Source: Escherichia coli
Lineage (GTDB): Bacteria; Pseudomonadota; Gammaproteobacteria; Enterobacterales; Enterobacteriaceae
DNA length: 64,000 nucleotides
Direction: 5' to 3' (one strand)
NCBI RefSeq assembly: GCF_048403405.1
Contig: NZ_CP183129.1
The notes below the pieces were generated by a model that was not told the origin of the DNA, ran no database searches, and saw only the letters and a list, made by a program, of their open reading frames with translations. The translations under genes were made by a program, and so were the position numbers. Of the stretch, positions 39,795 to 43,238 are shown piece by piece (the first letter of the stretch is position 1; every line of letters begins with the position of its first letter).

Positions 39795-40212
39795 CTACCT
39801 GCATCAGGTTGTTTTTTGTTTCTTCCGCCTCCCGGATCCGGAACAGTTTTTCTGCTTCCGTATCCTTCACCCAGGCTGTGCCGTTCCACTTCTGAAACTC
39901 CCCTTCCGGCGATAACCAGGTAACATTTTCCGGTAACGGACCGAGTTCAGAAATAAATAACTCGTCCCCTGACGCTACGTCATAAACCGTTTTCCCCCGA
40001 TGGTCTTCAACGAGATGCCACGATGCCTCATCACTGTTGAAAACAGCCACAAAGCCAGCAGGAATATCTGGTGGTGCAATATCGGTACTGTTTGCTGGCA
40101 GACCTGTATGAGGCGGAATATATGCGTCACCTTCACCAATAAATTCATTAGTTCCGGCCAGCAGATTATAAATTTTTATGGTCCGTGCTTGTTCACTCAT
40201 TCTGAATGCCAT
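39628..40212 (-). CDS. tfa: tail fibre assembly protein Tfa
   Basis: 194-aa [42 protein letters not shown], lambda Tfa-like. Confidence 0.9.
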
Positions 40213-43200
40213 TATGCAAGCCTCACAATATAGTTAAATGCGATGTTTTTGACGGTGTTTTCCGCGTTACCCGCAGCGTTAACGGTGATGGTGTGTCCAT
40301 GTGAACCAATCGCAACGGAGTGCGTATGCGCACCAATACCTACAGTATGTGCATGTGCGCCAGAACTTGCTGCAGTACCAGACAGCGAGTGGGTATGAGC
40401 ACCTGCTGACTGTGTCTGAATACGTTGATAATACGATCTATAGGAAGAAGTCTCCGGGCTTACTTGATACTGTGAATTCTGGACATAAGTGAACCCACCG
40501 CCATCATAAAATGCTAACGCAGAACCGCCGCCTCCTGGCCAACGAATACCATTACCATGAGTATGAACACCGGCAGACCCCGTAGAGCCACTCAGACTGT
40601 GCGTATGCGCCCCAGTGTTATTCGTGGATTTAGTGCCGTAATCAAACGACGATGTGGTTTTCGTCCCCAAATCCGTACTGGATGCGCTGGCGCTGTGGGT
40701 GTGCGATTTTATGCCGTCCTGTTCCTGAGACAATACGGCCCGGCCACTGGCGGGTTTGCCCTTGATTGTCCAGCCGCGCATATCTGGAATAACACCTGAA
40801 GGATAGGCAATAGCCAGTTTCGGATATGCTGCCTTATCAAACGTCTGCCCCTGCATGATTGCATAACCTGCAGGTGGTGTATCTGATGGCCACGGCAGCG
40901 GAACACCTGGCGGAAACGCTTCAATATTTGCCGAGCCGTCAAATTTTACGCCGTTAATTGTCCTTGCAGTTTGCAATTTGGTTGCTGTGCTTGCATTACC
41001 CGATAAAGATCCAGTGATACCACCACTCGCGTTTAATTTAGTTGCAATTGTAACATTGCCAGTATGGTTACTAATTATAAACGGCCTTAAGCTATTGTGC
41101 GTACCAAGACTGTTACCCGAATCTGTCAACATAAAATATGTGTTTGATCCATCATTTCGGATAAAGAATCCATAGTTGCCATAGGCAATACGCAGACCAT
41201 TTGCTGACCTTGAAATAACCTCACCAGCAGCAGTTAAACCACCTGAAAGAGTCCCTCCAGTTAATGCCAATGCCCCAATATTTGAAGGGGTCAATGTGAT
41301 ATTTGCACTACCATCAAATGACACACCGTTAATCGTTCTGGCTGCCTGAAGTTTCGTGGCGGTCGCAGCATTACCTGTAGTGTTTTGATTACCGGTAGCG
41401 TTGACTCCAGGCAAGTTGATATCTGCCGATCCATCAAATGCCACGCCCCCAATCTTACGTGCTGTCTTGATCTTGGTCGCAGTATCTGCGTTTCCGGTCA
41501 AATTACCAGTAACACTACCACCAACTTTTAGTCCATTACCGATGGACACCAACCCTGATCTTAAGTTTATAGAGAATGGTCTTAATGAACCGATGTCTCC
41601 ATTTTCCCCCTCCCCTTCATTAGTCGGAATAAGATGAAGATGATCTTCGGAACGCCTAAAAATAAGGCCAAAGGCTTGGTTGAATATTCGAAGAGCATTT
41701 ATCGTGCTGATTTTTAACTGCCCTCCCATTGTGTCGCCAGTTTTTTGAACTGAACTATCTTTAACAGTTTTAACTGCCTTTGGCGTTGCCGCCAGCTTTT
41801 CACTGGTGCTGTTTGTTGCACTGCTGAGCTGTACTATCCCCTTTTTCGTCGTGCTCGCATCCTCCAGCGCCACGGCGGATGCAATATCCTCTGCCCGTTT
41901 TGCTGCTGTCTCGGCGCGCGTTGCCGCGGATTCAGCAGCAACTTTGCTCTGAGATGCAGCCGTCGCACTGCCTGCCGCCTCTGATGCTTTCGTTGTTGCT
42001 GTCGTGGCACTACCTTTCGCTGCTGACGCTTGTCTGGTCGCCTCATCTTTTGAAGCAGACGCAGATGATGCCGATGACGCCGCTGAACTGGCTGACGATG
42101 CGGCTGCCGCCTTAGAGGAAGCAGCATTGTCTGCTGAAGTCTTTGCATTTGTTTCAGAGGTTTTTGCTGCAGAAGCAGACCTCGCTGCTGCAGTGGCTTG
42201 CTCAGTGGCTTTGCCAGCCTTCGTTGTGGCTGTTGAAGCGGATGATGCGGCGCTTTCTGCCGATTTTCCGGCGGCGGTGGCACTGGCTGAGGCCTGCCCG
42301 GCACTTGTTGACGCGGCACTGGCAGATAATGCAGCCGCTGTTTTTGAACCTGCCGCAGCTGAGGCGCTCTGTCCCGCTGCTGTTTCAGAAGACTTAGCGT
42401 TCGTCTCGGACGTTTTTGCCGCCTTCGCGGAATTTCCTGCCGCCGTTGCCGAGGAAGCTGCACTACTGGCACTTGATGATGCATTCGTTTCTGAAGATTT
42501 CGCTGCCTCTTTTGAGGCCGCCGCACCCCGTGCCGAGGTGGCAGCTTCTGACGCCTTCGTGGTCGCTGTGGATGCAGAAGTGGCTGCCGATTTTTGTGAT
42601 GCTGCGGCATTCGTTTCTGACGTTTTCGCGGCACTGGCGCTGGTAGCTGCCGCGCTTTTTGATGACTCTGCAGCAGCAGCACTTTTTGCTGCTTCACGGG
42701 CCTTTGTCGATGCCGTTCCTGCGCTGGAAGACGCTGACTGAGCCGACGACGCGGCCTGTCCGGCTGACGTGCTGGCGGCACGTGCTGAGGCTGCAGCATC
42801 GGTTGCATGAGTTGCCGCCTCGCTGGCTGATGCACTGGCATCGCTGGCTGATTTTTTCGCGGCTGCCGTATTCTGTGCAACCGCGGAGGCGTTACGTGAC
42901 ACCTCTTCCACCATCTGCTCAAAGCGGCGCAGTGCCTCCGGTCGGACATCATCCTCCGTCATGGCACCGAGAAAATCATTCAGCGTACCTGGTCTGGAAC
43001 CTTCATAGACGGTAATGGTCCCGGCATGTGAAGGCGGAAAACCTTCAACCAGCAGGGTGACGCTGTACTGGCCATGCTCAACATCCATGCTGTAACGTCC
43101 GGCTTCATCCGGATTTTCAGAGGCCACCGTGTTCACCACCACCGTGCTGCTGGTTCGTCTGGCCTTCAGCACAATGGTGCAGTTCTGTACTGGTTTTCCT

Positions 43201-43238
43201 GTGCCATCTTTAAGCACGCCAGAAATTTTTACTGTCAT
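40212..43238 (-). CDS. stf: side tail fibre protein Stf
   Basis: 1008-aa ORF: lambda Stf-like N-terminus ([21 protein letters not shown]), about 330-aa Ala/Ser/Thr-rich low-complexity stretch, C-terminal HxH repeats ([24 protein letters not shown]) and ..[11 protein letters not shown] end; ATGA overlap with tfa. Confidence 0.9.

Follow-up and report, generated by a model that had tools for sequence, protein, structure and literature searches.

A Mosaic Side Tail Fibre Gene and Its Partner tfa in a Lambda-Like Prophage of Escherichia coli

Results

The stf-tfa Pair of a Prophage in ompW

Analysis of a window of 64,000 nucleotides from an Escherichia coli genome (contig NZ_CP183129.1, assembly GCF_048403405.1) indicated that its stf and tfa genes are, very probably, the pair of a lambda-like prophage in ompW and encode a complete mosaic side tail fibre together with its assembly chaperone (Table 1). 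Stf is a mosaic in which a lambda collar, rod and junction are followed by a gp34/Mu gpS-like shaft and a gp37-like tip. As a side tail fibre gene in a lambda-like prophage it is ordinary and was already known and annotated, the protein being identical to RefSeq WP_000216487.1 (strain 118UI, PGAP annotation), and the significance of the finding beyond correct annotation is small.

Table 1. Positions of stf, its segments and the neighbouring features in the window.
Feature	Positions	Strand	Remarks
J	44057..47530	-	
lom	43390..43989	-	
Terminator-like hairpin and T-run, lom/stf gap	43257..43286	-	13-bp stem then TTTTTATT; consensus match only
stf, complete 1008-aa side tail fibre gene	40212..43238	-	Stop codon 40212-40214
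Stf residues 1-94, N-terminal collar (tail-attachment) domain	42957..43238	-	PDB 9e7m_Ta, PF08400
Stf residues 95-105, collar-to-rod linker	42924..42956	-	Precedes first heptad at F106
Stf residues 106-462, proximal alpha-helical coiled-coil rod	41853..42923	-	51 heptads A-x-x-S-A-x-x
Stf residues 463-497, junction motif KGIVQL...ATPKAVK	41748..41852	-	Nearly invariant in relatives
Stf residues 498-772, beta-structured gp34/Mu gpS-like shaft	40923..41747	-	Pfam and PDB matches
Stf residues 773-1008, T4 gp37-like tip (collar, needle, head)	40215..40922	-	2XGF, Pfam
Stf residues 895-944, divergent head inside needle, presumed receptor-contacting	40407..40556	-	
tfa, 194-aa tail fibre assembly chaperone	39628..40212	-	Pfam Caudo_TAP; start overlaps stf stop by 1 nt
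Alternate-frame (+1) ORF, 372 aa, inside rod, judged non-coding	41834..42952	-	
Antisense ORF, 245 aa, inside rod, judged non-coding	42004..42741	+	

An earlier note on this DNA had described stf as an intact, full-length side tail fibre gene, and that description held in each of its parts. The ORF listing and translation gave one ATG-initiated ORF of 1008 aa with zero internal stops that continues to a gp37-type tip; the stf of lambda PaPa, unlike this uninterrupted frame, is frameshifted. The note had named an internal stop or a frameshift on resequencing as contrary evidence, and since the same 3027 nt occur at 100% identity in at least 10 other complete E. coli genomes, the ORF is no sequencing artefact. 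The identity as a side tail fibre is supported by the match to phage_tail_N (PF08400, E 5.6e-70 over residues 1-134), which is one of four Pfam domains in the protein (with Gp34_trimer, Collar and Phage_fiber), by the collar match to PDB 9e7m described below, and by the lambda gene order J-lom-stf-tfa, with all four genes on the minus strand and the PGAP order in strain 118UI in agreement. As for full length, the alignments to both Ur-lambda Stf and T4 gp37 run to their final residue, and 1008 aa is the modal length in close relatives.

The prophage carrying stf is lambdoid and inserted in ompW, with ompW, yciE and trp adjoining. The window contains part of this prophage, and the tail genes within it (tape measure, L, K, I, J, lom, stf and tfa) are all open. 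Directly downstream of the fibre gene lies a protein of the Caudo_TAP family (PF02413, E 1.9e-44) that has 94.8% identity with lambda Tfa across 194 aa. The stop codon of stf (TAA, 40214..40212) and the ATG of tfa share one base and read TAATG, in line with the overlapping fibre/chaperone pair that had been proposed; judging from intactness and conservation, the pair is probably functional. A terminator-like hairpin lies 18 nt upstream of the stf start. Promoter-like sites numbered 7 as compared to 6.6 +/- 2.1 in shuffles, which is no excess, and we do not claim a dedicated stf promoter.

A Lambda-Type Collar, Linker and Coiled-Coil Rod

The Ur-lambda fibre, as determined by cryo-EM/ET and AlphaFold3, consists of collar, linker, proximal coiled coil, hinge, distal domain and RBD (PMC12617516). 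Its attachment (collar) domain comprises gpStf residues 1-91 and was solved as PDB 9e7m/9mgh, the collar at the gpV-gpM junction being built from twelve copies (Yu et al., Sci Adv 2025, PMC12617516). When we aligned our Stf to Ur-lambda Stf (774 aa), as the earlier note had suggested, the collar, rod register, junction and tip aligned, while the shaft and head differed. The two genes have the same position in the order J-lom-stf-tfa, and the first 94 residues align over their whole length, residues 1-94 of our protein matching 1-94 of the Ur-lambda collar chain 9e7m_Ta (E 3.6e-47). Residues 95-105 are the counterpart of the flexible Ur-lambda linker of about 10 residues (92-101; PMC12617516).

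The segment that follows had been read from the letters as a low-complexity Ala/Ser/Thr rod at residues 110-440. The composition was borne out (residues 111-440 contain 38.8% Ala, 24.5% Ser and 11.2% Thr, with an A+S+T fraction of 0.6-0.83 from about residue 111 to 430), but the extent was not, because the periodic segment is wider (106-462) and strictly made of heptads: the stretch called low-complexity is a regular coiled-coil rod of 51 heptads. Position 1 of the heptad is occupied by Ala in 47, Val in three and Phe in one, position 4 is Ser in 37 of the 51, and position 5 is Ala in 36 of the 51. The Ala periodogram peaked at 3.5 and 7.0 residues, above all 500 shuffles. Tandem Repeats Finder returned two trivial arrays only and no clean DNA tandem array over the rod, and the periodicity is thus one of the protein and not of a DNA tandem repeat. 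An AF2 monomer model of residues 95-500 (mean pLDDT 64, pTM 0.23) was helical at 101-278 and 287-474. The break at 279-286 was treated as an artefact of monomer modelling, since a similarly folded-back AlphaFold3 model of Ur-lambda Stf is in conflict with cryo-ET (PMC12617516), and the tertiary arrangement of our model was not used. Thus a proximal helical rod follows the short linker, as in a lambda-type Stf, which is supported by the heptads, the AF2 helix and the lambda register alike.

It might be argued that the Ala/Ser/Thr region is instead a disordered low-complexity spacer, or a structureless product of repeat expansion, and forms no rod. Ala, Ser and Thr together make up 74% of it with large hydrophobic residues almost absent, no clean DNA array was returned, and the AF2 confidence is just moderate, all of which would suit such a spacer. 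However, a spacer of this kind is hard to reconcile with Ala, Val or Phe at one fixed position in 51 consecutive heptads at a periodicity exceeding 500 of 500 shuffles, with helix predicted throughout, with indels in relatives of which seven of 11 are exact multiples of seven residues, and with the homologous segment of Ur-lambda being a rigid trimeric proximal rod by cryo-EM/ET (PMC12617516). We consider the disordered spacer highly improbable and retain the coiled-coil rod. The rod so described is a natural example of a very long, stutter-free heptad coiled coil of small residues. Coiled coils do not usually have an Ala/Ser core, and the closest analogy is the alanine-core trimeric coiled coil ("alanine zipper") of engineered Lpp-56 variants, which shares heptads with Ala at a core position throughout; the likeness is one of analogy only.

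Rod Length and Codon Usage in Relatives

The Ur-lambda rod keeps the same register but has 36 heptads where ours has 51, the gap of 105 aa being 15 heptads, and among relatives the rods span 35-53 heptads (about 36-55 nm). These lengths were measured with the full-length Stf as query; a query of the N-terminal 167 aa gave almost only fragments of 137-292 aa. Variation in repeat length among related prophages had been named as a check on the fibre, and we found 11 natural rod-length variants. Seven of them differ by whole heptads, for which the binomial probability at a chance rate of 1/7 is about 2e-4, and the other four (-1, -22, -23 and -34) are out of heptad phase. We therefore rejected strict conservation of heptad phase: given these register-shifting variants, either strict phase is dispensable or the alleles that break it are defective. 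Most in-phase deletions join AKTSETN-type repeats, which are themselves in phase, so that the whole-heptad pattern may reflect the mechanism of recombination as much as selection.

Aligned rod codons are about 81% identical to those of lambda in amino acids. The substitutions fall on codon positions 1, 2 and 3 in the numbers 27, 29 and 90, and this third-position bias indicates that the Stf frame is under purifying selection.

A gp34/Mu gpS-Like Shaft and a gp37-Like Tip

The junction after the rod is the same KGIVQL...ATPKAVK motif as in Ur-lambda, and its region also aligns to the tail fibre gpS of phage Mu (Stf 433-499 with residues 83-150 of 5yvq). Beyond it, residues ~387-527 of Ur-lambda Stf are replaced by a module of about 275 aa. 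This shaft contains three GNxxTATKLxxARxIxGVxFDGSxNI repeats starting at residues 582, 622 and 747, and matches Pfam Gp34_trimer (PF21446) over 620-722 with E 1e-26 and 94.2 bits against a gathering cut-off of 27. Among PDB sequences it matched Mu gpS (5yvq, E 3.3e-30), residues 268-350 of which align to Stf 670-751 with E 2e-24 for that stretch; the C-terminal region of T4 gp34 aligns to Stf 557-753, with 4uxe at E 1.9e-17, 5nxh at E 1.9e-15, and 5nxf, 4uxe and 5nxh together within E 1.9e-17 to 6.4e-14. The gp34 and gpS modules belong to myovirus fibres; here such a module is spliced into the fibre of a siphovirus-type prophage, with a coiled coil of lambda type before it and a tip of gp37 type after it. 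The mosaic break points at residues 496 and 772 are recurrent, and alignments of Stf to P0213, P0227 and P0238 all stop at residue 772. These break points, together with the length variants, offer ready-made junctions for engineering chimeric lambda-type fibres.

From residue 773 onwards the protein resembles T4 gp37, to which it is unrelated in sequence N-terminal of that residue. PDB 2XGF matched Stf 743-1008 with E 1.2e-79, and Pfam placed Collar at 778-825 together with Phage_fiber. The collar and needle (Stf 773-894 and 945-1008) are 75-76% identical to gp37 811-931 and 963-1026 and 85-88% identical to lambda Stf, which has the same C-terminal sequence; the extreme C-terminus of gp37 is identical over 11 residues. 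The HxH repeats expected at the C-terminus are present as seven motifs (residues 846, 878, 892, 948, 962, 971 and 980) that align to the seven of gp37, all of which are kept here. The chaperones differ, gp37 having gp38/gp57A where the prophage has a lambda-type Tfa. An AF2 monomer of the C-terminal 269 residues gave a mean pLDDT of 33.5 and was unusable as evidence of fold, which is no surprise for a trimer that presumably binds metal and has obligately intertwined chains.

Within this conserved scaffold the head is different. The T4 gp37 head comprises 27 residues (933-959). A gp37-like head, which would imply the same receptor specificity, was looked for at residues 895-944 and not found, the identity being 16% to gp37 932-962 and 20% to the head of lambda Stf, and the segment is about 19-23 residues longer than that of T4. 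It was found in only two of 50,697 phage records, although about 420 complete E. coli genomes have it. In view of this difference receptor specificity cannot be transferred from lambda or T4, and binding to OmpC cannot be assumed. Given a tip scaffold conserved with T4 and lambda and a head that is different, the allele is a candidate new specificity for host-range engineering. We suggest, tentatively and as an idea that is more likely wrong than right, that the head may target a receptor other than OmpC and that the rod may be a spacer adjustable in whole heptads. If so, the reach of the fibre could be matched to the depth of the layer that covers the host (O-antigen or capsule), and recombination between the in-phase AKTSETN-coding repeats could be the mechanism that adjusts rod length.

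Conservation and Decay of stf in E. coli

The gene is present at 99% identity or more in at least 420 E. coli records, with ML35 and VR50 among the strains that have it. Decay does occur, as IS3 insertions indicate: in at least one strain, 118UI, the tail region of this prophage is interrupted by an IS3 element that separates L from the gene for the K-like C40 peptidase, and in strain SW070919 the stf match is split in two around an IS3 transposase. We considered whether stf, although intact, might be a relic of a defective prophage whose fibre is never assembled, the ORF being kept by recent insertion or as a recombination reservoir for lambdoid phages. Such a history would account for the IS3 elements that other strains have in or beside the tail genes of this prophage, for the pseudogenes annotated just downstream, which are remnants of other tfa and DUF4376 genes, and for the many truncated Stf fragments (150-290 aa) on contigs of several megabases. 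Defective prophages have also reportedly served as donors of stf DNA to lambda. In contrast, every tail gene visible in the window is open, stf is 99-100% conserved in about 420 records, and the third-position bias relative to lambda speaks for long-term purifying selection on the protein. On balance the relic is unlikely, and we favour an stf-tfa pair that encodes a complete fibre and its chaperone.

Proposed Assembly and Action of the Fibre

We infer the trimeric state, virion assembly, metal binding and adsorption function of Stf by homology to Ur-lambda and T4. Ur-lambda carries four Stf trimers per virion, which speed adsorption via OmpC (PMC12617516). By analogy, one fibre would consist of three Stf chains, in which the linker is followed by 51 heptads of a parallel alpha-helical coiled coil with a small-residue core (Ala at position 1, Ser/Ala at positions 4/5) and a calculated length of about 53 nm as compared to about 37 nm for the 36 heptads of Ur-lambda. 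The KGIVQL...ATPKAVK junction would connect this rod to the beta-structured shaft, and the fibre would end in the gp37-type collar, needle and head, where the seven HxH motifs of each chain may coordinate metal ions along the trimer axis. Tfa, presumably coupled translationally through TAATG, would chaperone trimerisation of the tip. The assembled fibre would then make reversible adsorption to a receptor in the outer membrane faster, a step that would precede the engagement of gpJ with its own receptor.

GC Content and Alternate Reading Frames of the Rod

The GC content is 0.56-0.62 across ~41750-43000 as compared to 0.41-0.51 elsewhere in stf, in agreement with the roughly 1 kb of GC-rich low-complexity codons pointed out before. 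It is mainly codon position 2 that is enriched (0.77 vs. 0.54), and the excess therefore follows from the amino-acid composition, on which ground a foreign origin of the patch was rejected.

The same codons had been said to create several long spurious ORFs in other frames, and codon-shuffle controls and comparison with lambda support this view: the alternate-frame ORFs are by-products of the GCN/TCN/ACN codon composition. That the 372-aa sense (+1) or the 245-aa antisense ORF is a real overlapping gene is so improbable that we set it aside. The +1 frame has 365 stop-free codons out of 366 in the rod, which exceeds 97% of codon shuffles (mean 216 +/- 66; fraction at or above the observed value 0.028, uncorrected for five frames), but this excess is non-significant after five-frame correction, and in lambda the frame contains three stops and is 38-61% conserved as compared to 79-81% for the Stf frame. 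Conservation of the antisense frame a1 relative to lambda is 75-79%, which is however expected because the antisense wobble coincides with the wobble position of Stf, and the length of its open frame (262 stop-free codons) is within the codon-shuffle expectation (mean 230 +/- 72; fraction at or above the observed value 0.31). Moreover, the products would be Arg/Gln/Pro- or Ala/Asp/Phe-rich, and the PGAP annotation of strain 118UI has no gene at the positions of these ORFs. Further alternate-frame ORFs of 118, 84, 78 and 76 aa were present. Where a coiled-coil rod is rich in Ala, Ser and Thr, long false ORFs in its other frames are to be expected by gene callers and human readers alike.

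Integrity and Architecture of the Side Tail Fiber

The stf-tfa pair is best read as an ordinary, complete lambda-type side tail fiber with its chaperone. All elements named in the earlier note were found in place: Stf is intact at 1008 aa, and tfa overlaps stf by one base shared between the stf TAA stop (40214..40212) and the tfa ATG, which reads TAATG. At least 10 further complete E. coli genomes carry the 3027-nt stf gene with 100% identity, and 420 records carry it with ≥99%, so that its intactness and conservation are directly observed; since many independent assemblies carry the same gene, the internal stop or frameshift on resequencing that the note had named as its refutation is excluded. 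In strain 118UI, stf encodes WP_000216487.1 (“prophage tail fiber N-terminal domain-containing protein”), with an Ail/Lom gene on one side, a tail fiber assembly gene on the other and gpJ upstream. Annotations of stf already exist in hundreds of genomes, and a description of its architecture is available for Ur-lambda. The tfa product matched Caudo_TAP (Pfam, E 1.9e-44). An intact stf and a Tfa 94.8% identical to that of lambda support the fiber/chaperone pair proposed earlier; that the pair is functional we infer.

Features of stf, tfa and their surroundings (nucleotide positions in the window; residues of Stf)
Feature	Position	Strand	Details
stf	40212..43238	-	one ORF, ATG start, 1008 codons, no internal stop
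tfa	39628..40212	-	194-codon ORF, ATG start
phage_tail_N	residues 1-134		Pfam, E 5.6e-70
Ur-lambda Stf collar chain 9e7m	residues 1-94		end-to-end match, E 3.6e-47
Mu gpS (5yvq)	residues 433-499 and 670-751		match, overall E 3.3e-30
T4 gp34 (4uxe)	residues 557-753		match, E 1.9e-17
Gp34_trimer	residues 620-722		Pfam, E 1e-26
T4 gp37 tip (2XGF)	residues 743-1008		match, E 1.2e-79
Collar	residues 778-825		Pfam, E 3.8e-10
Phage_fiber HxH repeat	Stf		Pfam
Heptad position 1	rod		Ala 47/51, Val 3/51, Phe 1/51
Heptad position 4	rod		Ser 37/51
Heptad position 5	rod		Ala 36/51
Terminator-like hairpin	43257-43286	-	13-bp stem and T-run, directly 3' of lom, 18 nt ahead of stf start codon
Methyltransferase ORF	38905..39573	+	class I SAM-dependent, 222 aa, GC about 0.42
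tfa remnant	38579..38848		89-aa ORF, C-terminal part of Caudo_TAP only
Prophage end/truncated ompW, then yciE	about 37865-38575		coordinates converted from the 118UI locus record

Homology to known fibers was directly observed along Stf. In alignment with the intact 774-aa Stf of lambda (record KT232076), the N-terminus, rod, junction motif and tip scaffold were common to both (collar and needle 85-88% identical), whereas the middle module differed. Alignments to relatives ended recurrently at residue 496, just past ATPKAVK (database match P0232), and at residue 772, where the third GNxxTATKLxxARxINGVxFDGSxNI repeat ends (matches P0213, P0227 and P0238), with more mosaic break points near residues 128 and 312-323. 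Because these alignments stop repeatedly at the same residues, Stf is built of modules that can be exchanged, as is well established for tail fiber genes.

By analogy with Ur-lambda and T4, the protein would assemble as a trimeric fiber anchored to the tail by its N-terminal collar domain, with a 51-heptad coiled coil keeping the tip at a distance from the tail and a shaft resembling gp34 and Mu S adding length; the end would be a gp37-type metal-stapled needle, folded by Tfa, whose head would touch a surface receptor for adsorption. In Ur-lambda, four trimeric Stf fibers are anchored by a 12-mer collar, and Stf comprises a collar domain (residues 1-91), a flexible linker (92-101) and a proximal coiled coil (102-393), followed by a hinge, a distal domain and an RBD (PMC12617516).

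The Rod Is Predicted to Be a Strict Heptad Coiled Coil

The earlier note described a low-complexity Ala/Ser/Thr rod. The composition is real (residues 111-440: Ala 38.8%, Ser 24.5%, Thr 11.2%), and the description is corrected here to a strict heptad coiled coil, predicted from sequence and model, at residues 106-462. When the sequence was laid out in sevens, 51 consecutive heptads ran from F106 to residue 462 with no stutter or stammer among them. This periodicity was directly observed in the Ala periodogram, which peaked at 3.5 residues (power 9.5) and 7.0 residues (power 4.2), against a highest power of 3.7 in 500 shuffles. With moderate confidence (pLDDT 64), AF2 modeled the monomer as helical at residues 101-278 and 287-474. 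The Ur-lambda rod has 36 heptads in the same register, separated from the window rod by a single gap of exactly 105 residues (15 heptads), and, since the Ur-lambda study describes the proximal coiled coil, the rod is a known structural element. With 357 residues and a rise of 0.148 nm for each, the rod has a calculated length of about 53 nm vs. about 37 nm for lambda.

The rod DNA (about 41750-43000) has a GC of 0.56-0.62 vs. 0.41-0.51 in the remainder of stf. A foreign origin of this patch was ruled out, since the extra GC is found at the second codon position (0.77 vs. 0.54) and follows from GCN/TCN/ACN codons. Other-frame ORFs in the rod reach 372 aa on the same strand and 245 aa antisense, with several of 76-118 aa. 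When the order of rod codons was randomized, stop-free runs were 216 ± 66 codons in the sense +1 frame and 230 ± 72 in antisense frame a1, vs. 365 and 262 observed; +1 was the only frame on the long side (fraction at least as long as observed 0.028), and this was not significant after five-frame correction. Lambda has three stops in the +1 frame, conservation with lambda is 38-61% in that frame vs. 79-81% in the Stf frame, and Stf codon positions 1, 2 and 3 hold 27, 29 and 90 of the substitutions between the two rods. The apparent conservation of a1 arises from frame geometry, its wobble position coinciding with that of Stf. PGAP annotated no genes in alternate frames of the rod. On the shuffled lengths, the lambda stops, the low +1 conservation and the missing PGAP calls, these ORFs were rejected as genes; they arise incidentally from composition, in line with the note.

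Rod Length and Tip Among Relatives

Repeat length indeed varied among related prophages. Across the 120 best full-length relatives and lambda, the longest unbroken run was 35-53 heptads in nearly all proteins (mode 51), with two outliers of 17 and 21. Distinct rod indels relative to the window protein were in phase in seven cases (-7, -28, -42, -49, -105, -105 and -112, one -105 being that of lambda at another site than the other) and out of phase in four (-1, -22, -23 and -34), i.e., 7/11 multiples of seven vs. a chance of 1/7 (our binomial estimate about 2e-4). Most in-phase deletions join AKTSETN-coding repeat copies that are themselves spaced in phase, and, therefore, recombination mechanism and selection are confounded. 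The out-of-phase alleles are real sequences on several contigs, with the register shifted. Trimeric coiled coils can absorb such shifts by local discontinuities, six-residue insertions, for example, giving beta-layers (PMC4786415), and the shifts in these relatives may, by analogy, be absorbed likewise. Many database entries for Stf (P0012-P0054) are 137-292-aa fragments ending within the rod, some from contigs of several megabases, which suggests that the GC-rich repeat has frameshifts (real, or assembly or long-read errors), together with short-read contig breaks.

The C-terminal HxH repeats noted earlier number seven, within residues 846-982, and all align with those of T4 gp37, whose collar and needle share 75-76% identity with those of the window Stf. 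The 2XGF histidines reportedly bind seven iron ions arranged along the axis of the trimer. In contrast, the window head (residues 895-944) shares only 16-20% identity with that of T4 or lambda and is about 19-23 residues longer than the T4 head, so that receptor specificity (OmpC) is not transferable from either. Of 50,697 phage records, only 2 had this head variant, and both derive from prophages. The AF2 monomer of the tip (pLDDT 33.5) gave no useful information.

Prophage Setting

In strain 118UI the prophage adjoins a truncated ompW, with yciE/yciF and the trp operon next to it. The window is arranged likewise and contains the Trp leader. At the ompW junction of 118UI, PGAP annotates a DUF4376 gene carrying an internal stop, marked as a pseudogene, and a fragment of the OmpW C-terminus. 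Since the prophage ends at the truncated ompW, with this fragment there, ompW is the integration site. The two prophages are otherwise identical apart from an IS3-family element in 118UI (4792-6005 of locus record L001), between L and the K-like C40 peptidase gene, which is missing from the window. In strain SW070919 (NZ_CM129861.1) the stf match lies in two pieces flanking an IS3 transposase. Whereas I and J abut in lambda, here the tail assembly gene I (47874..48554) and J (44057..47530) are separated by 343 nt (47531-47873) with no convincing ORF, where PGAP annotates nothing in 118UI either.

A 197-nt direct repeat, 89% identical between copies at 38559-38755 (downstream tfa remnant) and 39608-39804 (tfa 3' end), flanks the methyltransferase gene, which runs opposite to tfa and resembles a moron that was inserted with tfa on one side and an older tfa cassette on the other. 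Rfam IS009 (RF02111) matched at 39671-39869 (-; 225 bits), wholly within the tfa coding sequence, with no match reported at the gathering threshold in the second repeat copy (38559-38755); this “RNA family” appears to be a model of the 3' half of prophage tfa genes, which is conserved. If the hairpin ahead of stf is functional, late transcription of stf-tfa would require read-through (antitermination).
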